Shown here piece after piece: positions 1 to 19,966 of a stretch of 48,941 nt of DNA (the stretch's first letter is position 1; the number at the start of each line of letters is the position of its first letter). The position numbers and the translations under genes were made by a program. The DNA comes from a virus (lineage: Duplodnaviria > Heunggongvirae > Uroviricota > Caudoviricetes): IMG/VR virus record IMGVR_UViG_2802429253_000004. One strand, given 5' to 3'. The notes under the pieces were generated by a model, which was not told the origin of the DNA, ran no database searches, and saw only the letters and a list, made by a program, of their open reading frames with translations.

Positions 1-121
1 AAACCGAGGTTTTTGCGAATTGCCTCTGTATCGTCTGAACGATATTTTTTCCCGCTTTTAGCAACAATCGCGGTTTAGAAAGTATGCAATATGGTTATGC
101 GAGAGTGTCAACTTTTGACCA
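1..121. repeat. 121-bp terminal direct repeat, identical to 48821..48941 (overlap of a circular molecule)
   Basis: The first 121 nt match the last 121 nt of the window exactly. Confidence 0.9.
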
Positions 122-638
122 GAATTTAGAATTACAACTGGAGGCGCTCAGGCGTTCAGGATGTGACCGGATTTTTGAAGATAAAATATCCGGTGCTAAA
201 TCAAAACGACCTGGACTTGATAAGCTACTGAAGGTGTTACGGCCGGGCGATACGGTTATTGTCTGGAAGCTGGACCGAATGGGGCGTTCTCTGATTCATC
301 TTGTTGATTTACTTAACCATTTTTTATCAAACGACATTGAGTTTATTTCGATTACGGAAGGGATAAAAATTAGCACTTCAATTGGCCGCTTTGCCTACAC
401 GATGCTGAGTGCAGTCGCAGAGATGGAGCGGGAAAATATGATTGAAAGAACGCGTGCAGGATTGGCGGTGGCAAGGGCTAACGGCAGGATAGGAGGACGC
501 CGCTCAAAACTGGCACCAGAGCAATGGGAACAGATCGGAAGGCTTATTGCGAATGGTGTTTCACGTAAGCGGATAGCGATTATCTTCGATGTTACCTTAT
601 CCACGCTTTACCGCAGGTTTCCGGCTGGGAATCATTGA
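84..638 (+). CDS. Serine recombinase, DNA invertase of the Gin/Cin/Hin/Pin family
   Basis: 184 aa; N-terminal YARVSTxDQ catalytic motif, resolvase fold and C-terminal HTH, closely resembling Mu Gin; lies next to an invertible tail-fiber segment. Confidence 0.9.
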   Translation: MQYGYARVSTFDQNLELQLEALRRSGCDRIFEDKISGAKSKRPGLDKLLKVLRPGDTVIVWKLDRMGRSLIHLVDLLNHFLSNDIEFISITEGIKISTSIGRFAYTMLSAVAEMERENMIERTRAGLAVARANGRIGGRRSKLAPEQWEQIGRLIANGVSRKRIAIIFDVTLSTLYRRFPAGNH

Positions 639-768
639 CTGGAGTTAGGCCAGTAGTATGATGCTCGCAAAACGAGATCCAATTTAGATCCTTTTACTGG
701 TGGATTATCGTTCGATTAGTGAGAGACTTCGTGCATGACCGAAAGTGTTGTGGTAGAGTTCTCTTAAA

Positions 769-783
769 ACCACGTAACGTGGT
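769..783. promoter_or_regulatory. Operator-like palindrome ACCACGTAACGTGGT upstream of repA, same ACCAC-N5-GTGGT architecture as the cI/cro operators
   Basis: Perfect inverted half-sites ACCAC/GTGGT with 5-bp spacer; same pattern at 10711..10725, 11463..11477 and 11565..11579. Confidence 0.5.
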
Positions 784-821
784 TACGATTGTGGGTGTCT
801 GGTTGGAAAACGACCAGATAT

Positions 822-915
822 GGAAACAAAAAGCCCGCAGATAAATCTGCGGGCTTCTTGCGACATCCACGGAAAAACCAACAAACATATCCATGGGCGC
901 CTCGACAACTCCCAT
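822..915 (-). ncRNA. Candidate CopA-like antisense RNA of the repA leader (3' end defined by an intrinsic terminator on the minus strand)
   Basis: Minus-strand hairpin (about 832..856, stem AAGCCCGCAG/CTGCGGGCTT) followed by a U-run (about 821..830), just upstream of the repA start as in IncFII control regions; the 5' end is not defined. Confidence 0.35.
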
Positions 916-951
916 TATACGTTGGTTTTCCGTGGACGCAAGAGCGAACAT

Positions 952-1800
952 ATGGATAGACCAATGCCGTCTCTACGTTCAGCTTACGTTTGTAATTTGT
1001 CGCCGGAGTTCCAGCCTCCAAAGCACCATACGCACAAGCTGCCGCTGGTGTTATCTGATGCTTTACAGCGCATTAATGGTCGTGATCTTACGTGTGAGGT
1101 TGCGTTCTACGTTAATCAACCGTCAGAGCGGAAACGCCGGATAAACGAGCATCGTCGTCGGGCAATTAATGCTGTGATTGCTGCGATTTTGCACCATGTA
1201 AACATCATTTCTAAGCGGGTTCTGGCCAGTGCTGAGGCGTTGGCTGATTTTTGCGGCCTGTCTACCGTATCCGAAGCTGGGAACAAGTCTATAACGCGCT
1301 GTACAAGGGCGTTGTCGCAACTGAAAGAGTTAGGTTTTATTGATTATGAACGTCGCTGGGATCGGGTGAATAAACAGTATTGGCCAGCGAAAATCGAGAT
1401 TCGTGATCAACTGCTGGAAACAGTTGGTATTACTGAACAAGCATGGAGACGTGCGGTTAGCCAGAAACTTAATTACTTCAATGCGAAGAATAGCGAACGG
1501 CTTAAAAAAGCGATAACGGAGGCTGATTATAAGCGTATTGTTATTCAGGAGCAGATGGAGAATGTATGGCGTCAGAGGAAGACGGCCAGAGAGATAAAGG
1601 CAAAACAGAAAGCAGCGGAGAGAGCTGCGCGTCTTGTTCAGGAAAAGGGAGAGGCCGAACTTCGTCACCAAATCACTAGAGAGGTTAGCCAGGAATTTGC
1701 TGATGGCATGTATCCTGGTGCTGACCTTGCATATTTACGCTCCCTCGTTGATCAGCGTTATAACAGGCTAAGAAAGACCTGGACATCACTCCAACATTAA
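952..1800 (+). CDS. repA: Plasmid replication initiator RepA, IncFII (RepFIIA) RepA1-like
   Basis: Recognisable similarity to R100/R1 RepA1 (region LSTVSEAGNKSITRCTRALSQLKELGFIDYE); the ORF is open from 820 but the Met at 952 gives the RepA1-like length (283 aa) and clears the antisense hairpin; start is uncertain. Confidence 0.8.
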   Translation: MDRPMPSLRSAYVCNLSPEFQPPKHHTHKLPLVLSDALQRINGRDLTCEVAFYVNQPSERKRRINEHRRRAINAVIAAILHHVNIISKRVLASAEALADFCGLSTVSEAGNKSITRCTRALSQLKELGFIDYERRWDRVNKQYWPAKIEIRDQLLETVGITEQAWRRAVSQKLNYFNAKNSERLKKAITEADYKRIVIQEQMENVWRQRKTAREIKAKQKAAERAARLVQEKGEAELRHQITREVSQEFADGMYPGADLAYLRSLVDQRYNRLRKTWTSLQH

Positions 1801-1835
1801 CCCACCTGAATGATGAATCCGGTTTTACCGGAGGA

Positions 1836-2050
1836 TTATCCACGTCGCAATAAAATAGCTGTTCAAAAAACAAGCTAAATTAATTTTCTCTAAACCTGAA
1901 CACAGCGAAAATATCGTCTTTACAGGCATCAGCTAATCAAGTTATTCACAGTTTTGATATGTATATGCAAATGGTTTTTTATAATAGATGCACTAAACAA
2001 ATAAATGCAAAATCACTTTCTTTTATTAAAACTTTCTTTATTTAACTTAC
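1836..2050. other. Candidate replication origin (oriR-like): DnaA-box-like TTATCCACG at 1836..1844 followed by an AT-rich tract
   Basis: Lies directly downstream of repA as in IncFII replicons; 8/9 match to the DnaA box consensus; AT-rich stretch at about 1920..2040. Confidence 0.4.
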
Positions 2051-2443
2051 GCAGGCTTTGCCTGTGAATATGTTCGCCCTTGCAGCGAGCTAAAGCTCGC
2101 GCCGGTTCGAGTCGCTACGCTCAAATATACCTCCTCCGGCACTTGCCGGAGGCATGGAGCAGCCTGATCATCCTTTTCGAAACGGCGCGTTTCGAACTAT
2201 ACAAAATCAATTTATATAAGGCCGAAATAAGGCCTACGGCCGGGCTTTGCAGGAGGAAGGGGCGAGCCTTATCAATAAACGTCGATAAATACGCACACAG
2301 TAGCCATCAGAACGCGATAAAACGTAAGAAACATCATTTCCTATTAGACATAGAAAACTTGTCTTATACGCAATGTAGTAAATTTCTATTGCCACATAGG
2401 AAAAGATTTCCTACCATCGTAGATATAATAAATGGAGATGGTT

Positions 2444-2731
2444 ATGGATAAAGATACTGTTTTAAAAATGTTGAATCCGGCTTGTTTAAAAAAAGCGGAT
2501 GAATGGGAATCTCCTACATGTGGAGAAGTTCGGGCAGTCATTGGCCTGACCGGAATGAGCGGCTCGCAGTTGGCCAAAAAACTAGGCTTAAAAGATAGTC
2601 GCAATGTTCGCAACTGGCAGATGTTAAAGGAGTCCACATCCAGATCCAGCATTCCGTATGCAGCCTGGGCGCTGCTGTGTTACTTCGCTGGGTTAGGGTT
2701 AATCTTCATTGATAACAAAACAGATGTTTGA
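2444..2731 (+). CDS. Small HTH DNA-binding protein, function unknown
   Basis: HTH-like segment LTGMSGSQLAKKLGL; GGAG ribosome-binding site 6 nt before the ATG at 2444. Confidence 0.5.
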   Translation: MDKDTVLKMLNPACLKKADEWESPTCGEVRAVIGLTGMSGSQLAKKLGLKDSRNVRNWQMLKESTSRSSIPYAAWALLCYFAGLGLIFIDNKTDV

Positions 2732-6070: not shown

Positions 6071-6096
6071 AGCGCCCAAATCGGGCGCTTTGTTTT
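6071..6096. terminator. Bidirectional intrinsic terminator between convergent genes
   Basis: Stem AGCGCCC/GGGCGCT with a T-rich tail on the plus strand and a U-rich tail on the minus strand. Confidence 0.65.
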
Positions 6097-7237
6097 ATGG
6101 TTTTGCACCTGCGGCCAGTTTATCCGCAGATATTTTTATCAGTTCCTGTAGTGTCCTGGCTGGCAGGTTTGCATCCAGAACGCTGAGTATGCTGTTGTGA
6201 TCAGCCTGGTCGACTACTTTGCCTGTCGGTGGTAGTAGCTTGAGCTGAGGATTCAGGTTTTCGTCAAAGCTGATAAGTGCTCTGGCGTTTCTGAGCAGAT
6301 CAAGAAGTAAGGCTGATATCACATCATCTTTAGTCATTGTTGGTAGATTTAGTGCCGCTTTAGTTTTCTCCGTCGCCTTGTCAAACTCTTTGATTAGTGT
6401 CTTGCGGTAGTTTGGTTCTGTTAATAGCCGATGATGTTCTGTTGCCGTTCGGATAATCTTTGTTTCCTGATACAGTCGGTTGTATAGCATTCGCTCGTAT
6501 TCTGCCTTTAACACGCTGCTGATAGCGTTAAAGGCTTCAATGTAGGCCAGCTTGATATCCTTCACGCCTGGACCGTCGATACTTTCCATGAGCAAGGTAA
6601 ATCCGTCTTTTGTCATGCGATAGATTGTTATTTCGCGGTCGCTTCCTTCCAGCGGTCGTTGCTCTTTAAAGAAATGACGCGCCGCAGCCGTGCGAGGAAT
6701 GCGTAATGCATCGATGGCCATTACGATGGAATTGTTTGTGGTGCTGAATGCTTGGGCAACATCGGCTGAGGTTGTGAGTGGCTCGTTGTTGCACACCTTA
6801 ATGTAATACATCGGTTTGGCATTGAGTGTATCGACAACCTCACGAGCATTGTTTGGCGAGACGGTTACGGTCGCGGCCGTTTGCGCGTTCTGGTTGAAGT
6901 AGCAGTCTTCCAGCCGTTCGAATACATCCCACGCCTGATCGGTTTCGAGCATTTTAGCGTGACGTGCAGCCCCGCGTTCGGTCCAGAGGATGAGTTTTCT
7001 AACGTTATTCGCGATGGTTTGAAAATCTCTTAAAGAGATTTTCAAACTTTGGAGATCTGTACCTTTTACAACTATGAAATGTTTTCCTTCTGTAAACCGG
7101 GACTTATTACGGTGGTGATTTCTGTGAAGACATTCGACGCTACAGCCATATAGTTTGGCAAGCAGCTCCGTGGTGATAACGGGGAGCTGGTTATGCAGGA
7201 TAGGCTGTAGGGTGTTAACGGTCGGAAGCGTTTTCAT
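6095..7237 (-). CDS. Antirepressor-like regulator with ORF6N-type N-terminal domain and Rha domain
   Basis: 380 aa; N-terminal segment ending LWTERGAARHAKMLETDQAWDVFERL, central Rha-like segment ITIYRMTKDGFTLLMESIDGPGVKDIKLAYIEAFNAI. Confidence 0.7.
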   Translation of the reverse strand: MKTLPTVNTLQPILHNQLPVITTELLAKLYGCSVECLHRNHHRNKSRFTEGKHFIVVKGTDLQSLKISLRDFQTIANNVRKLILWTERGAARHAKMLETDQAWDVFERLEDCYFNQNAQTAATVTVSPNNAREVVDTLNAKPMYYIKVCNNEPLTTSADVAQAFSTTNNSIVMAIDALRIPRTAAARHFFKEQRPLEGSDREITIYRMTKDGFTLLMESIDGPGVKDIKLAYIEAFNAISSVLKAEYERMLYNRLYQETKIIRTATEHHRLLTEPNYRKTLIKEFDKATEKTKAALNLPTMTKDDVISALLLDLLRNARALISFDENLNPQLKLLPPTGKVVDQADHNSILSVLDANLPARTLQELIKISADKLAAGAKP

Positions 7238-7425
7238 TTTGCACCTCCCATAACTACTTTGGTTACGAGGGAGATTTTTGCGTCAGAAACAGCGTTATCG
7301 TTGCTGGCGATGCGCATAGCTTCGCGCTCGATGATTTCAGCCAGGCGGAATTTATCGGCGTATGAGGCTTTCTTGAGAAGGATCTTTACGAGGTTGACGT
7401 AATAGTCATGGGGTAGGTTTGTCAT
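7234..7425 (-). CDS. Small protein translationally coupled to the antirepressor gene (positionally Icd-like)
   Basis: 63 aa; its stop overlaps the ant start (ATGA); ribosome-binding site AAGGGA on the minus strand. Confidence 0.45.
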   Translation of the reverse strand: MTNLPHDYYVNLVKILLKKASYADKFRLAEIIEREAMRIASNDNAVSDAKISLVTKVVMGGAK

Positions 7426-7587
7426 TGTGATGATTCCCTTAAAGGTTAAGGATACTCACCACCGTCAGGTTCCAATCATTGGGTGGTGAGACGTGCAGGG
7501 TTGGAACTACCGGACACAATGACGAACCGGCGAGTCTTACGACTCCCCCGCACGCCCCACCATAATTTGGGTGTAGCAGTGCTTTAC

Positions 7588-7612
7588 GCATAAAAAAACC
7601 GCTAACGCGGTA
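7588..7612 (-). terminator. Intrinsic terminator on the minus strand within the leader of the antirepressor operon (3' end of a candidate small RNA or attenuator)
   Basis: Minus-strand hairpin ACCGCG..GCGGT followed by TTTTTTT; mutually exclusive pairing segments upstream (TCTACGG / CCGTAGA / CTACGG at 7626..7663). Confidence 0.4.
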
Positions 7613-7875
7613 TGCGCCATTGTGTCTACGGGGTTCCAATCCCGACCGTAGATTTTGCTACGGCTCGGAAAGTGTCCACCAATGGCGCATTCATGTCAAT
7701 ACGGCGGGATTTTAACAGAGGCAACCACATAGCGTGGGTTTGAATGCAGGGCTTTTAATTTTCTTGATATGCTAAGAACGGGAATGTATAGTTCCTGTAA
7801 GGAACAAATCAGTCCTAAATTGTGATGTTTTGTTAAAGTTGGGAACAAGAAAAAAATTTATTATGGGGATAAAAA

Positions 7876-8415: not shown

Positions 8416-8834
8416 TGAGTGAAGAAACAAAAAAACCGCCCTATTGAGGACGGTTCTTTCGTGCTGATCGGATTCGCAGTCCTTTCAGCATAACGTCGTT
8501 GTATAAATACAACCACGCAAGCACAAACAGCGTTCTTATTCTTACCTAACTGAATAAAATTGTCCAAATAAATTTGGTTTATTAGAGCACAAAAGCAAGT
8601 GATATTTTGTAATATGCGGTTAAGTCAATGAAAAACAATATTTTTTTATCCCTTCATTATGAAGGGGCGGCGGCGTAACATTACGCGGGGCCTTTTCGCC
8701 GATTCGCACCCGGGCACCGACTTTCAGGAAAGGATTATCCAACCGCCGTACCACGCAGGCACAAACAGCGTGCTTGCTCTCGCGTCATTTTCGTCGGTGG
8801 AGATGCCGTGGAACGGCCTGCGAGGGCCAATACA

Positions 8835-8954
8835 ATGAGGAAATACGTATGTATTTTGATCGTTGTTACTGGAGCTTTGTTTACGCCACATGGGGAGGGT
8901 TGGAAGATTACTGATAACGCTCTGAATGTGACGATAAACATTAGCAGCAAGTAG
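8835..8954 (+). CDS. Candidate 39-aa hydrophobic peptide (MRKYVCILIVVTGALFTPHGEGWKITDNALNVTINISSK)
   Basis: GAGGG ribosome-binding site 8 nt upstream; strong intrinsic terminator immediately downstream; no homolog recognised. Confidence 0.3.
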   Translation: MRKYVCILIVVTGALFTPHGEGWKITDNALNVTINISSK

Positions 8955-8959
8955 CGATT

Positions 8960-8982
8960 AGGCCCCTTCGGGGGCCTTTTTT
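8960..8982 (+). terminator. Strong rho-independent terminator
   Basis: Stem AGGCCCC/GGGGCCT with loop TTCG, then TTTTTT. Confidence 0.8.
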
Positions 8983-8992
8983 ATGGTTGAAT

Positions 8993-9142
8993 TTAAACGC
9001 TGGAGCGCATTAAGCCTTTCAGAACTGCTTCACGTACCCATTCTGGCCTGGTGGATAGCAGGGCAAATAAGCGACCAGCTTGCAGCCGTTTGAGGTCGGT
9101 TAGACGAGTTTTCAGTAACCGTGTATATTGTTGCTCGGACAT
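8993..9142 (-). CDS. Small hypothetical protein downstream of the partition operon
   Basis: 49 aa from the internal Met, with an AGGGGAA ribosome-binding site; same strand as parA and the RHH gene. Confidence 0.35.
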   Translation of the reverse strand: MSEQQYTRLLKTRLTDLKRLQAGRLFALLSTRPEWVREAVLKGLMRSSV

Positions 9143-9204
9143 AACAAATTCCCCTTGTTGTGTCGCGACGGCCAACAGTTGGCGCTGGAGGCCGTCACCT
9201 TCTC

Positions 9205-9453
9205 TTACTTCTGGTTGTATTGAGCCTTGAGTAACTCAAAAGATTTTGTCAGCACTTCTTTCAATGACATATCCATTGAGCTGGCGAATGTTTTGTACTC
9301 ACGTTTAAATTCAGGGTCGACGTTAAACGCCATTTGTGCTCCACCTGATTTGGTTCTGGTCGGCGTTTCAGTCGGGTCGAAAACCTGCGGTTGTTCGATT
9401 GATGGCGGTACGCCTTTGCTGTTCTTCTTTGGTGGTTTTGATGGTGCGGCCAT
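9205..9453 (-). CDS. Small partition protein, ribbon-helix-helix ParG-like centromere-binding protein
   Basis: 82 aa directly downstream of parA; unstructured basic N-terminus then an RHH-like segment MAFNVDPEFKREYKTFASSMDMSLKEVL. Confidence 0.6.
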   Translation of the reverse strand: MAAPSKPPKKNSKGVPPSIEQPQVFDPTETPTRTKSGGAQMAFNVDPEFKREYKTFASSMDMSLKEVLTKSFELLKAQYNQK

Positions 9454-9465
9454 GTGTATCCCCTC

Positions 9466-9497
9466 TTATATAAATCTATAAAACTATAATTATATAT
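9466..9497. repeat. AT-rich 15-bp iteron pair (TATAGAWTTATATAA family, inverted orientation) downstream of the partition operon
   Basis: TATATAAATCTATA and AAACTATAATTATATA; same motif family as at 3956, 10172, 10246, 13991, 15218, 19728 and 20858. Confidence 0.7.
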
Positions 9498-10165
9498 TAC
9501 GCGGCAGTAGTCAGAGCCTCAAGCTGGTTGATAATCCCCTGAATAACGTCGTCTGCCTTTTTGCGTGGCGCAACGTATGAACACTCAATGAGGCTTAAGC
9601 CCTTATCCTGAGCTTTGCTCAGAGCTGGCTTGTGGGGAATGTACTTATCGACAACAAAGTATGGCGTATTAGCCAGGTACTCTTGGGCTTCGATGTAGTC
9701 AGCTTCGTTTTCAGCCGCGCCGGAAAACACCATGCAAATTTTCTTGATTGGTACACCCTTTTTAACGATGCCGTGAGCTGTGTTAACGGTGGTTTCCAGG
9801 TCATCGGTAGAGAATCTGGTTGGCAAAATAACCATATCCAGAAATTCAGAGAGCTTCGGTACTGATTCAGATGCGTAGGCACCGCCATCGACGATAACCA
9901 GGTCGTATACTTCTGATTCGATGATTTTCTGGACTTGTGATGGTGTGCCGCACGGCTGCGCCGCGATTGCTGGTTCGATATTGTTGGCCATTCTGCGTTG
10001 TACCCAACGCGTTACCGTTCCGTTAAGCACATCCATATCGATCAGGCATACATTCCAGCCAGCCTTTGCATAAGCAACTGCTAAAGCACGAGCAATGGTT
10101 GATTTGGTTACGCCGCCTTTTCCGTTGAAAATACCTACAGATATAGTCATTTGTCGAGACTCCAT
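9497..10165 (-). CDS. parA: Partition ATPase ParA, small type Ib (ParF/Soj-like)
   Basis: 222 aa; deviant Walker A GKGGVTKST near the N-terminus. Confidence 0.85.
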   Translation of the reverse strand: MESRQMTISVGIFNGKGGVTKSTIARALAVAYAKAGWNVCLIDMDVLNGTVTRWVQRRMANNIEPAIAAQPCGTPSQVQKIIESEVYDLVIVDGGAYASESVPKLSEFLDMVILPTRFSTDDLETTVNTAHGIVKKGVPIKKICMVFSGAAENEADYIEAQEYLANTPYFVVDKYIPHKPALSKAQDKGLSLIECSYVAPRKKADDVIQGIINQLEALTTAA

Positions 10166-10675: not shown

Positions 10676-10710
10676 GCGTAGCCTCTTTTATACTTTTACA
10701 TGTTGTCAAA

Positions 10711-10725
10711 ACCACAAAATGTGGT
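10711..10725. promoter_or_regulatory. Operator-like palindrome ACCACAAAATGTGGT
   Basis: ACCAC-N5-GTGGT dyad between cI and the downstream ORF. Confidence 0.5.
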
Positions 10726-10767
10726 TTTTTTGAGCGTAGAAATGCACGGCTTTCGCCGTGCTGTGTA

Positions 10768-11424
10768 TCATAACCAGTTGACAACACTAACTACGCGGCC
10801 AAGAACTTTATAACGCTTAAATTCCTCGTTATTCAGATGCTTAGTGTTCATTTCAGCATCCCTTTCGGTTGACAGCATAACAGCATTGTCACCCGGTATG
10901 ACTCTACAGTGCCTCAAAACAACCAGGCCATTTCTGTCTTCAAGGGCATAGATCCCCTCATGAATCTCTGTATCGTCTGTATTAATCAGGACTTGGGAGC
11001 CTGGGGATATTGTTGGTGACATTAACTCATCGTTGCTCTGGAGAACTGACAGAGACGATGGGTTGATGTTCTTGCTTCGTAGAATCTCCTGTTCTATCGC
11101 CAGCACTGGCTTTTCTCCGGCGTGCGATGCTATGTCATTTTTTATAGCTACAAGCCCAGGAATAACAGGAGCGTTAGTATTCTGGGGTGGGAACGGGTTA
11201 TCTGTTAAGCACGCGATATAAGGCGCTGATGCTTTCAGGGCGTGCGCGATTTTCTTGATGGCAGGTATAGATGGTTGTCTTAATCCGGCCTCATAGTTCT
11301 GCAAGGTGCTTAAGCCTATTCCAGTGACTTGCTGGAGATCTCCGGCAGTCATGCCGGATTGTTTCCGTAGAGTCTGAATGCGCAGACCTATTTCTTTCTT
11401 GATGTTCTCGTCGTTGCTTTTCAT
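10768..11424 (-). CDS. CI-like phage repressor (N-terminal HTH, C-terminal S24 LexA-like peptidase domain)
   Basis: 218 aa; HTH at residues about 15-60, C-terminal autopeptidase-like domain; divergent from a cro-like gene. Confidence 0.85.
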   Translation of the reverse strand: MKSNDENIKKEIGLRIQTLRKQSGMTAGDLQQVTGIGLSTLQNYEAGLRQPSIPAIKKIAHALKASAPYIACLTDNPFPPQNTNAPVIPGLVAIKNDIASHAGEKPVLAIEQEILRSKNINPSSLSVLQSNDELMSPTISPGSQVLINTDDTEIHEGIYALEDRNGLVVLRHCRVIPGDNAVMLSTERDAEMNTKHLNNEEFKRYKVLGRVVSVVNWL

Positions 11425-11462
11425 GTCTCATCAATCGTGAATGGTGGGTTATTTATACATTA

Positions 11463-11579
11463 CCACATTTAGTGGTTTTCACATGGTAAGACGAGAGGTG
11501 GACCACAAATAGAAGGTTATTTTTTGTTTCGCCCATTGAAAAACTCACGATATGTGGTTTTAATACCACATATCGTGGT
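11463..11579. promoter_or_regulatory. Divergent cI/cro promoter region with at least two full operators (ACCACATTTAGTGGT at 11463..11477, ACCACATATCGTGGT at 11565..11579) and a half-site
   Basis: Repeated ACCAC-N5-GTGGT dyads in the 175-bp intergenic region; larger palindrome CACGATATGTGGTTTTAATACCACATATCGTG. Confidence 0.6.
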
Positions 11580-11598
11580 TTTAACTGGAGTTCGTTAA

Positions 11599-12093
11599 AT
11601 GACCTTTCAGGAGTGGGTTGACGAAAATGGAGGCCAAATTGGTGTTGCCAGAAAGTTTGGCTTTACGTCATCACTGATTGGTGCCTGGTATCGCTTCGAG
11701 AGATTCCCTCGTGCGGATAACCTGACGCTGCTGGTGGCGTATTCGGAAGGCCGGATTAACGTCCAGCAATGGGCGGCAGATTTTGCCGAACGTCAGCGCC
11801 AGCGTAGCGATGGCACATCGGTTCGGCAGAACAAGATCAAAGGGAATCTCCCTGTTAACTGCTTATCAAGGCTGAAAGCGGTTTTCTCTGAGCTGGGGAT
11901 GCCTGCGGAGCGTTGCAATCTACGCGGTCCGCGATTCATTGCTCGCTGGAAACACTCACACGTAACCGTTTCAGAGGTTCGTGATGCGATTACCGTGCTG
12001 GAGCTTAAGAATAAAGATTCCAGCGATATCGAGCTGATTCATAAGGAGATTAGCAACGCCCGGCGTTCAGCACTTGGGAGGCTTGAGGAATGA
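11599..12093 (+). CDS. Cro/YdaS-like HTH regulator with C-terminal extension (first gene of the early rightward operon)
   Basis: N-terminal segment ENGGQIGVARKFGFTSSLIGAWY resembles Cro/YdaS-type HTH; position opposite cI. Confidence 0.55.
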   Translation: MTFQEWVDENGGQIGVARKFGFTSSLIGAWYRFERFPRADNLTLLVAYSEGRINVQQWAADFAERQRQRSDGTSVRQNKIKGNLPVNCLSRLKAVFSELGMPAERCNLRGPRFIARWKHSHVTVSEVRDAITVLELKNKDSSDIELIHKEISNARRSALGRLEE

Positions 12094-14118: not shown

Positions 14119-15186
14119 ATGAATAAACAAGTAATTATTTCTGACTGGATCAACAACCCTAACAGCCTGTTGAGCACTGATACTGGCTATAGATTACGTC
14201 ATGTTAATGGCCGTATGGTCAAAAGCGATGAGCACGAAACCTTTTTCGTTGTTGAAGACGATGGACGTCTTTATGAGGATGGTCACTCTTATGAATCCCA
14301 AACAGGTTGTATCCCTGCGGAGTTGGTAGACGTAACAGAAAAGCTGCGCAAAGCATGGCTTGAACAGCAGCAGCGCGGAGATGATTACGTAAATACCTAT
14401 CAGGAACGCCAGAACGCGCGTCTTGCCCGATATATTGCTCGTGCAGAAAAAGCTAGAAAAGAAGGTGCGGTGGCGCATAAGCGAGCGCATGAACTGTTGG
14501 ATGTGATCCCGTTAGGCCAGCCGATTTTAGTTGACCATTATAGCGCGAAAGGCCATCGCCGCCGTTTGTCTAAAGCTGATGCGTTATTCAGAAAATCGTT
14601 TGTTGAGTGTGAAAGCAGAGCATCGTACTACGAAAGCAAAGCCGCAGGTGTCGGCCGTAATGGAGTTTCGTCTGATGATCCTGATGCGCTATTTAAGTTG
14701 CTTCGTAAGCTGCAAGGCTGCATGAAGTCACACATCAAAATGAAGGCCGCAAATAAGGCTATTCGCAAATACAAAAAAGACCAATTACAGCAGCTTTCCG
14801 CATTAATTGACCTTGAGTTTACTGAAAGCGAAGCCAAAGAGTTACTCGCCGGAGATTTCTGTGGGCACATTGGCTTTCCTTCATACTCACTGAGTAACAA
14901 TAACGCCGAAATCAAACGCCTACAGAGCCGTATTAAAGAGCTTGAATCGGTCAAGTCTGTAACAGGATCACAGCGCGAAGAATACGACGGCTTTTCTATG
15001 GAGGTAGATCCAGAGGATAACCGCATCCTGTTTTATTTCCCTGGCAAACCAGAGGCAAACATTCGTTCGCTGCTTAAATCACGCGCCTTTAAGTGGAGTC
15101 CAACCCGTAATGCATGGGTTCGCAAGATTACTCCAAACGCCCTGGCTGATGCCCGATATCTGAAAGAATCGCTATTGAAAGCCTGA
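14119..15186 (+). CDS. Hypothetical 355-aa protein, first gene after cassette copy B
   Basis: Long ORF with basic, coiled-coil-like central region; function not recognised. Confidence 0.6.
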   Translation: MNKQVIISDWINNPNSLLSTDTGYRLRHVNGRMVKSDEHETFFVVEDDGRLYEDGHSYESQTGCIPAELVDVTEKLRKAWLEQQQRGDDYVNTYQERQNARLARYIARAEKARKEGAVAHKRAHELLDVIPLGQPILVDHYSAKGHRRRLSKADALFRKSFVECESRASYYESKAAGVGRNGVSSDDPDALFKLLRKLQGCMKSHIKMKAANKAIRKYKKDQLQQLSALIDLEFTESEAKELLAGDFCGHIGFPSYSLSNNNAEIKRLQSRIKELESVKSVTGSQREEYDGFSMEVDPEDNRILFYFPGKPEANIRSLLKSRAFKWSPTRNAWVRKITPNALADARYLKESLLKA

Positions 15187-17934: not shown

Positions 17935-18079
17935 GTATTGTTTTTTTATTGATCGATTGACCACATTTTGAAGGTTTTTTTATGGGAAAACCTTGTTTTA
18001 GGTGGTAACTGGGTGTAGTGTTTCATTTAACGTAGTAAAACTGCGTTAAGCGATTACCGCGTAATTTGTTGCTTTATGA

Positions 18080-19890: not shown

Positions 19891-19966
19891 GGCCCCTTAG
19901 CTCAGTGGTTAGAGCAGGCGACTCATAATCGCACGGTCACTGGTTCAAGTCCGGTAGGGGCCACCA
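19891..19966 (+). tRNA. tRNA with CAU anticodon (tRNA-Met, or tRNA-Ile2 if lysidine-modified)
   Basis: 76-nt cloverleaf: acceptor GGCCCCT/AGGGGCC, D-arm GCTC-AGTGGTTA-GAGC, anticodon loop CTCATAA, T-arm ACTGG-TTCAAGT-CCGGT, encoded CCA. Confidence 0.85.

Follow-up and report, generated by a model that had tools for sequence, protein, structure and literature searches.

A putative phage immunity-type operator at the predicted repA promoter of an IncFII-type phage-plasmid replicon

How plasmid replication is coordinated with phage replication has been worked out for very few phage-plasmids. The stretch analyzed here in full (hereafter, the window; 48,941 bp of IMG/VR record IMGVR_UViG_2802429253_000004, Caudoviricetes) is a 48.9-kb Escherichia coli phage-plasmid that carries, upstream of its replication initiator gene repA, a sequence dyad of the type found at its own cI-like immunity switch. 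This locus raises the question of whether the repressor that governs phage immunity may also act on the plasmid replicon. From comparison of sequences, we consider it rather likely that positions 635..964 constitute an IncFII-type replicon control region in which the phage immunity repressor stands in the place of CopB. The coordinates of all features are collected in Table 1.

The dyad upstream of repA and the immunity operators

A first-pass annotation, made from the letters of the window, had described a dyad at 769..783 with the ACCAC-N5-GTGGT architecture of the cI/cro operators. This description proved exact: the dyad ACCACGTAACGTGGT lies precisely at 769..783, inside a palindrome (768..784; hereafter, O-rep). 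More specifically, ACCAC-N5-GTGGT has four exact matches in 48,941 bp (at 769, 10711, 11462, and 11565), against 0.01 expected, and none of 100 shuffled windows contained four such matches. The three copies other than that at repA flank the cI-like gene (10768..11424); those at 11462 and 11565 lie inside the 174-bp intergenic gap between cI and the cro-like gene, and that at 10711 lies just 3' of cI. In a motif scan of the window with a 21-bp weight matrix built from the five immunity-region sites only, the site at 769 scored 20.07 bits, making it the top site outside the training set, and only 8/2000 shuffled windows held any site with a score at least as high. The objection that the dyad might occur at chance frequency, which had accompanied its first description, is thus answered by a window-wide scan that places it far above chance. 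Similarly, in two independent Salmonella plasmids of the family (44-49 kb), the window-trained matrix gave its five highest scores to the repA-upstream site and to the four operators of the immunity region. At the level of sequence, a chance likeness of the dyad to the immunity operators is excluded.

The immunity region itself consists of a cI-like gene and, divergent from it, a gene at the position of cro, with several dyads between them, i.e., the layout of a lambda-type CI/Cro switch; the four dyads of the cluster at 11461..11580 overlap divergent promoter-like hexamers. The cI-like protein (hereafter, CI) matches Pfam HTH_3 (helix-turn-helix [HTH]; E = 4.5e-11, 43 bits) and shows full-length similarity of 26-30% to cI repressors of Vibrio phages. 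Its match to Peptidase_S24 is weak (18.4 bits versus a cut-off of 23.3), the usual Ser-Met catalytic motif appeared not to be evident on inspection by eye (DELMSPT), and a PDB sequence search with CI returned a match confined to the HTH.

To follow the dyad through relatives, we compared two lineages. For the lineage of the window (group A), a first alignment of the control region comprised the window, the plasmid of Escherichia coli ATCC 25922, two Salmonella plasmids (76-78% identical there), and one IMG/VR contig; the extended set held 27 loci representing 18 distinct sequences. The second lineage (group B: L014, L024/L054, L023 plus L055, L052, and L053) keeps the gene order of the window, with RepA ~60% identical and CI 27% identical to the window proteins; it includes L014, a contig of Citrobacter freundii, and several contigs from IMG/VR and read archives. 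Throughout the 27 group-A loci, AAAACCACG and GTGGTTA are invariant, whereas four of the five spacer positions vary (GTAAC, GTTGT, GATGT, GATGC), as do the flanks. Invariant half-sites around a drifting spacer reflect purifying selection of the sort that a protein site would experience, and are typical of a dimeric HTH site.

Upstream of repA, we distinguished two promoter-like elements, P1 and P2. P1 is kept in the Salmonella relatives and has a group-B counterpart, TTGACG-17-TAGAGT or TAGAAT. For P2, the TG and TAGAGTTCT are invariant in the 18 distinct group-A sequences, within a larger invariant block (GAAAGTG...TGnTAGAGTTCT). The distance between P1 and P2 is ~90 bp, and this short spacing is kept in both lineages. 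We found no conserved open reading frame (ORF) between P1 and P2 (663..750), the sole listed ORF there (41 aa, GTG start, 719..844) spanning P2 and the operator; thus, there is no copB gene. Directly after P1 lie two GATCC sequences (at 676 and 687; 676..690), and group B has three GATC sites (L014 9185..9215; L024 2946..2972), which may confer Dam or SeqA sensitivity on repA transcription.

The dyad begins 9 nucleotides (nt) past the -10 element of P2 in the window, and in both lineages its center is found 17-18 nt beyond the end of the conserved TGnTA(G/A)AGT. Assuming a start ~7 nt after the -10 element, the dyad would span about +2 to +18. Hence, an immunity-type operator overlaps the predicted promoter of the replication initiator gene. 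The suggestion, also from the first-pass annotation, that a phage operator sits on the replication promoter is borne out in that the dyad matches the immunity operators and, as described below, co-varies with them; it needs amending in that the dyad lies just 3' of a predicted second promoter, which is not the sole promoter of repA.

The predicted antisense RNA unit, the repA leader, and the initiator gene

RepA of the window is a PF02387 protein (E = 3.1e-44; 151.8 bits versus a cut-off of 22.9; profile positions 2-272 of 275). For the leader of its gene, an IncFII-style antisense architecture had been proposed, with a minus-strand hairpin plus U-run at about 821..856 as a CopA-type terminator. 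The hairpin is real (833..854, with the U-run at 832..823), belongs to a predicted antisense gene, and stands in the leader of a PF02387 repA, as in the IncFII layout. What did not hold is membership of the CopA family, the likeness being one of layout only: Rfam CopA gave no match at the gathering score in the whole window, nor at E <= 10 in 600..1100. Sub-threshold Rfam matches in 600..1100 (Thr leader, trpB, and others) were discounted because they were driven by the terminator.

The minus-strand fold at the terminator hairpin is markedly more stable than those of shuffled sequences (z = -5.8 to -8.1); a general terminator scan of the window did not list the 833..854 hairpin. The antisense promoter, which sits inside the long leader stem-loop, is invariant in all group-A sequences, and its -10 block, CTCGACAACTCC(C/G)ATTATA, is common to group B. 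In the folded alignment of the antisense RNA, compensatory change affects 2 of 27 pairs, one of them a switch of A:U to G:C in the L010 terminator. The 5' stem-loop has 11 bp and a loop of 16-18 nt, and no other part of the region varies as much among relatives as this loop; variation concentrated in loops is the pattern seen among incompatibility variants of antisense-controlled replicons. Taken together, these features support the prediction that an entire antisense gene lies in the leader of this PF02387 initiator.

The remainder of the leader is likewise structured. The hairpin at 795..821, flanked by the operator and the antisense terminator, differs in sequence between the Salmonella plasmids, L010, and group B, its stem always being kept. 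The base of the long leader stem-loop overlaps the AAGAG ribosome-binding sequence (940..944), and group B has a leader stem of the same topology and different sequence. As for the start of RepA, a Met at 964 is conserved in the RepA proteins of all relatives, and in the E. coli type the ATG at 952 is in frame with it. In other relatives, an ORF of 13 codons (L010, L016) or 46 codons (Salmonella) begins at the ATG proximal to the Shine-Dalgarno (SD) sequence and extends over the repA ATG. The difference lies in 2 nt, ACATATGG versus ACATGG (window 940..966; also L010 9982, L016 9988, and L002 14887), which are predicted to switch between direct and leader-coupled initiation of repA. Leader ORF starts at 820, 858 (TTG), and 893 were rejected, neither start nor frame being kept in any of Salmonella, L010, or group B; since the start at 820 is not conserved, the annotated 326-aa RepA that begins there is probably an over-extension.

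In group B, an ORF of 158-162 aa homologous to the N-terminal half of RepA (PF02387 match; L014 9516..10004, L020 9528..10004, L021 1236..1712) precedes repA, and its stop overlaps the start of full-length repA (ATGA); it is a putative split or duplicated initiator in the place of a leader peptide. In Salmonella salamae, the repA gene of plasmid CP053324 is interrupted, giving two overlapping ORFs (L003 21031..21907), either by a frameshift or by a sequencing error. The region 3' of repA, with its DnaA-box-like 9-mers, is presumably the replication origin (oriR), by analogy with IncFII replicons.

Table 1. Predicted and annotated features of the repA control region, the immunity switch, and further operator candidates in the window
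Feature	Position	Strand	Description
P1	635..662	+	Promoter-like TTGACT-16-TATGAT at end of invertase gene; 10/12 consensus matches
P2	751..759	+	Predicted extended -10 TGGTAGAGT (TGnTAGAGT); conserved GTGCAT at -35 position (731..736); predicted start ~766
O-rep	768..784		Perfect 17-bp palindrome AACCACGT-A-ACGTGGTT; immunity-type predicted operator, ~+2..+18 of P2
Leader hairpin	795..821	+	11-bp stem, 5-nt loop; between operator and antisense terminator
Predicted antisense RNA	823..907	-	~85 nt; 5' stem-loop, then terminator stem-loop and U-run; ends predicted
Terminator hairpin	core 833..854, extended 826..861	-	GCCCGCAGA-TAAA-TCTGCGGGC, then UUUUUGUUUC (832..823)
Long leader stem-loop	857..942	+	Arms 857..883 and 921..942; z = -5.4; 5' arm is predicted antisense target
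Antisense promoter	914..941	-	-35 TTGCGT (941..936), 16-nt spacer, -10 TATAAT (919..914)
repA	952..1800	+	IncFII_repA family; ATG 952 follows AAGAG site
oriR-like region	1836..2050		DnaA-box-like 9-mers at 1836 and 1942; 76-84% A+T stretch
Possible further operator	7723..7739		AACCACATAGCGTGGGT, one mismatch; 5' of isrK/C4 RNA and antirepressor-like operon (minus strand)
Immunity-type operator	10710..10726		AACCACAAAATGTGGTT; between cI and downstream operon; conserved in Salmonella
cI-like repressor	10768..11424	-	218 aa; HTH_3 domain; recognition-helix region GIGLSTLQNYEAG
Operator cluster	11461..11580		Exact: 11461..11477, 11564..11580; imperfect: 11543..11559, 11502..11516
Cro-position gene	11599..12093	+	Divergent, 164 aa; phrog_7452; no Pfam family

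Co-variation in a second lineage and competing readings

Group B allowed the repA site to be compared with immunity operators of a different specificity. The helix region of the group-B CI reads (G/K)IPRST(I/L)QNYE(A/S)G, versus GIGLSTLQNYEAG in the window, and the group-B immunity operators are built on TTGTAGT, i.e., ACTAC/GTAGT. Correspondingly, the site at the group-B rep promoter is TGACTACAAAACGTAGC: the P2 counterpart is TGCTAGAGT or TGCTAAAGT, and ACTAC-AAAAC-GTAGC starts 8-10 nt later. In L014 (20.8 kb), TTGTAGT occurs six times, five of them at the switch and one at the rep promoter. With a group-B matrix built from immunity sites only, the rep site scored 18.6 bits and was the top non-immunity match in every group-B locus; in the four group-B loci that lack the immunity region, the next-best match reached at most 8.2 bits. 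A further dyad, ACGAC-N5-GTCGT in the P1 spacer of L014, was dropped, as it is not conserved in L024. Within group A, the Salmonella CI is 65% identical to that of the window overall and identical in the helix, and both the ACCAC operators and the ACCAC repA site are kept; likewise, the separately recovered immunity region of an L010-type contig is ACCAC-type. All elements in which both regions are readable are concordant, with no discordant locus. The sequence elements of the control region thus exist and are non-random and conserved, and the operator co-varies with the immunity operators.

The same co-variation bears on the alternative that survives best, namely that the dyad does belong to the immunity switch but is acted upon by the Cro-like regulator of lytic growth (11599..12093), by itself or jointly with CI, so that repA P2 would be lowered in lytic growth and not in lysogeny. 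The operators do sit between two divergent genes, cI and the Cro-position gene, and the N-terminus of the Cro-like protein also differs between the lineages. However, it is the recognition helix of CI that tracks the operator type exactly, the Cro-position protein has no recognizable DNA-binding family, and Cro of phiKO2 has been shown, and that of N15 is presumed by the authors, not to bind the operators near repA (PMC4997575). We regard the Cro-based alternative as unlikely.

Far less probable, in our judgment, is that the palindrome acts as RNA, be it as a 5' stem-loop of the P2 transcript affecting stability or processing, or as a back-up minus-strand read-through terminator, its operator likeness being coincidental. 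It is true that the terminator scan lists an overlapping minus-strand hairpin (CGTAAC-CAC-GTTACG plus UGGUUUUAAG) and that 768..784 is paired in the plus-strand fold. Yet conservation among relatives is limited to the 5-nt half-sites, and the bases between them change; the dyad is therefore unlike a conserved hairpin, because these spacer changes shorten the stem. Only 4 base pairs are possible in the group-B counterpart, the A/T runs on either side recur in the consensus of the switch operators, and a coincidental likeness is ruled out by the motif count together with both matrices.

Slightly less credence still is due to the dyad as a site for RepA autoregulation or for a host factor, without link to immunity. 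Its place in the repA promoter region would fit, and many initiators repress their own synthesis from promoter-region sites; against this, the ori-like region (1800..2450) contains neither the dyad nor one-mismatch copies, the other copies being found only at the immunity switch, and a host-factor site would not follow a change of phage repressor by turning from ACCAC into ACTAC. IncFII RepA proteins are not known to autoregulate. Finally, short dyads are common and the repA site was picked out after the fact, but a palindrome by mere chance is scarcely conceivable given the 0.01 matches expected per window, the 8/2000 shuffles, half-sites invariant in 18 sequences, and a cognate motif at the same position in the second lineage.

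We favor, then, action of the CI-like protein at O-rep, and the mechanism that we propose runs as follows. The repA gene would be read from two promoters, upstream P1 and downstream P2. (i) In the plasmid-prophage state, CI on O-rep would shut P2, and the bound repressor, ~100 nt downstream of P1, may also hinder P1 transcripts. (ii) Residual repA mRNA would be throttled posttranscriptionally by the ~85-nt antisense RNA (907 to ~823), which would set copy number by pairing with the 5' arm of the long leader stem-loop beside the repA ribosome-binding site. (iii) Where the repressor is absent or inactivated, i.e., in a newly entered naive cell, when copies are very few, or upon induction, P2 would open and RepA synthesis would rise. 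Since the C-terminal domain of CI is only weakly S24-like, induction would probably proceed through an antirepressor, from the C4/isrK-controlled module described below. Binding of CI, the P2 start, repression, the effect on copy number, and the antisense block of translation are steps that we infer.

If the mechanism is correct, the decision for dormancy would probably also set the rate of plasmid replication. We advance a broader proposal with considerably more reserve: that the immunity repressor took over the CopB arm, so that RepA would serve both low-copy maintenance (P2 shut) and establishment or lytic amplification (P2 open); that a resident prophage would, by analogy, block replication of a homoimmune superinfecting genome; and that the operator must change together with immunity specificity.

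Several points weigh against the reading that we favor. With regard to the promoter, P2 was deduced from conservation only, its -35 hexamer GTGCAT is poor relative to consensus, and a promoter scan found P1 only and not P2. With regard to the operator, there is one site at repA versus the clustered, probably cooperative sites at the switch, and its matrix score (20.1) is lower than those of the four best immunity sites (24.5-30.6). The co-variation involves only two specificity classes, which differ throughout the genome, so that it amounts to one evolutionary event seen in many loci; moreover, because the Cro-like protein changes in parallel with CI, co-variation cannot assign the binder. As for the antisense arm, pairing with the 5' arm of the leader stem-loop would release the other arm, which masks the ribosome-binding site. 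A hairpin that would refold over the repA start codon upon antisense binding is predicted in the window and in Salmonella, although not significantly so (z = -1.7 and -1.4), and is absent in L010; it was not adopted and is kept as an idea only. RepA may also not be the only replication function, in view of a 355-aa DUF3560 protein of the early region (14119..15186) with a secondary, weak match to a primase PHROG (E = 1.6e-36, residues 174-351); RepA may or may not also drive lytic replication.

Further operator candidates, the phage-plasmid family, and known systems

Beyond repA, the best-scoring operator of the window (10710..10726) stands before an operon of a phrog_7632 gene followed by a ParA-like ATPase gene (9497..10165); as it adjoins this operon, partition functions may also be under the immunity repressor. 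A one-mismatch dyad at 7723..7739 lies 5' of a TTGACA hexamer located before isrK, at a distance of ~25 nt. It is a weak candidate, since 0.6 one-mismatch matches are expected by chance and it is outside the top matrix matches in the Salmonella plasmids; through it, the repressor may also control the antirepressor operon. In this region, a C4 antisense RNA (RF01695, 77.8 bits) and an isrK-like RNA (RF01394, 67.7 bits) stand in tandem (7479..7664, minus strand), and 3' of them lie a 63-aa ORF and a 380-aa antirepressor-like protein with ORF6N and Phage_pRha domains (6095..7425, minus strand). The C4/isrK RNAs with the ORF6N/pRha gene are an antirepressor control module of the P1 immI and Gifsy-1 isrK type, here in a cI/cro-type phage-plasmid. 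Upstream of the lysis genes, two inverted, head-to-head copies of a variant site, ACCAC-N5-GAAGG, occupy 17960..18006; the same variant occurs at the switch (11502..11516), and the pair is kept in Salmonella (L002 32049..32096). As the spacers of the pair are not complementary, it looks like paired protein sites and not like an RNA hairpin.

Side by side with these elements, the window contains a full-length match to ryfA RNA (123.9 bits; 8686..8982, plus strand) and a tRNA gene (19891..19963, plus strand). The first 22 positions (1..22) read AAACCGAGGTTTT, a putative crossover site, beside a gene for a Hin/Cin-type invertase (84..638). In relatives of the window, oppositely oriented tail-fiber assembly genes lie upstream, which suggests an invertible host-range segment at the start of the window.

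The repA region is 98% identical to that of ~60 non-mobilizable plasmids of ~48 kb from E. coli, Escherichia fergusonii, Escherichia albertii, and Klebsiella, among them the plasmid of E. coli ATCC 25922, and likewise 98% identical to that of the Yersinia pestis myophages vB_YpM_39, 41, and 44. Of 5,426 complete E. coli genomes, 71 had the control region, always on a plasmid and never on a chromosome. Relatives carry tail, baseplate, terminase, and portal genes, and the family extends to Salmonella, Klebsiella, Citrobacter, and Yersinia-infecting virions. A tblastn search with RepA against 50,697 phage records matched only the three Yersinia phages, which belong to the same family as the window. 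A search of genome contigs with a RepA alignment returned no relatives, PLSDB searched with the group-B control region gave no match, and a metagenome scan yielded mostly the E. coli type of the window, a third specificity class not being found. The pSLy3 group was rejected as the same element, as it belongs to the SSU5 supergroup. Two further loci, L015 (a plasmid with a type IV secretion system; RepA 62%) and L041 (28%), were dropped as comparators because their leader layouts differ. In L015, two HTH_3 genes lie directly 5' of repA (8968..9745), at the position of copB in R1; this non-phage relative of the window replicon may encode repressors in cis.

In the literature consulted, we found no account of repA control in this 48-kb phage-plasmid family, and we compared the control region with replicons of known regulation. 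In R1, PcopB is combined with a CopB-repressed PrepA, CopA, and tap, and CopB already in the cell keeps an incoming cognate replicon from becoming established (PMC5717011). The window resembles the IncFII replicons R1 and R100 in (i) its initiator family, PF02387; (ii) tandem promoters, here predicted, of which the downstream one has a putative repressor site; (iii) a predicted ~85-90-nt leader antisense RNA with its own promoter and terminator and a loop that varies between relatives; (iv) a short SD-proximal ORF overlapping the repA start, in some relatives of the window; and (v) an ori-like region with DnaA-box-like sequences 3' of repA. It differs in that it has no copB gene, its repressor site matches phage immunity operators 10 kb away, and its antisense RNA has no Rfam CopA match. 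The position of the site also differs, being about +2 to +18 of P2 in the window, whereas the CopB site is at the -35 element of PrepA. Moreover, because the SD-proximal ATG of the window is in frame with repA, the window would have no separate leader peptide, unlike R1 and R100.

With the IncB and IncI-alpha replicons (pMU720, ColIb-P9), the window shares a predicted antisense RNA with a single target loop on a structured leader, a related RepA, and, in some of its relatives, a short leader ORF overlapping the rep start. Those replicons are known for control by leader peptide and pseudoknot, whereas in the window a pseudoknot partner was not demonstrable and refolding of the leader was not significant. 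They also differ in having no transcriptional repressor arm, families of this type relying on antisense RNA alone (PMC5717011).

Closer in regulatory logic are the telomere phage-plasmids N15, phiKO2, and PY54 (prophage repressor CB), in which a prophage repressor acts at the repA promoter, as we propose for the window. In N15 and phiKO2, the prophage repressor occupies a pair of OL operators that overlap the promoter of repA, so that the gene is repressed and copy number falls (PMC4997575). There, the two OL sites adjoin cB in a lambda-like layout, whereas the window has one site, 10 kb from cI and within an IncFII-type unit of two promoters and an antisense RNA without a repressor gene of its own; the operators are also of different kinds, 16-bp TA-N10-TA versus ACCAC-N5-GTGGT. 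We did not find homology of the window replicon or repressor to those of N15 and phiKO2, RepA being PF02387, with tblastn matches among the phage records in the three Yersinia phages only, and the operator motif differing. N15-type elements are linear plasmids with telomeres, and their RepA is a different kind of initiator. Phage P1, finally, is likewise a plasmid prophage, and the C4-type RNA upstream of an antirepressor-like gene in the window is a further likeness to it. The replication function under repressor control in P1 is that of the lytic replicon; the plasmid replicon of P1 is governed by iterons and lies outside the reach of C1. In contrast, the repressor-type site of the window is on the plasmid replicon itself. 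The principle of a prophage repressor at repA was thus already known from N15 and phiKO2, and what appears new is a predicted operator of this kind in an IncFII-type module without copB.

The family is common in E. coli and includes the plasmid of the reference strain ATCC 25922. If the proposed circuit is true, it would provide a simple, directly testable switch between low-copy maintenance and amplification, and it would represent a plasmid control circuit (CopB/PrepA) redirected to a phage regulator and showing evidence of co-evolution. Immunity would then also act as replication exclusion, immunity and incompatibility would become one property, and the evolution of plasmid incompatibility would be tied to the evolution of phage immunity.

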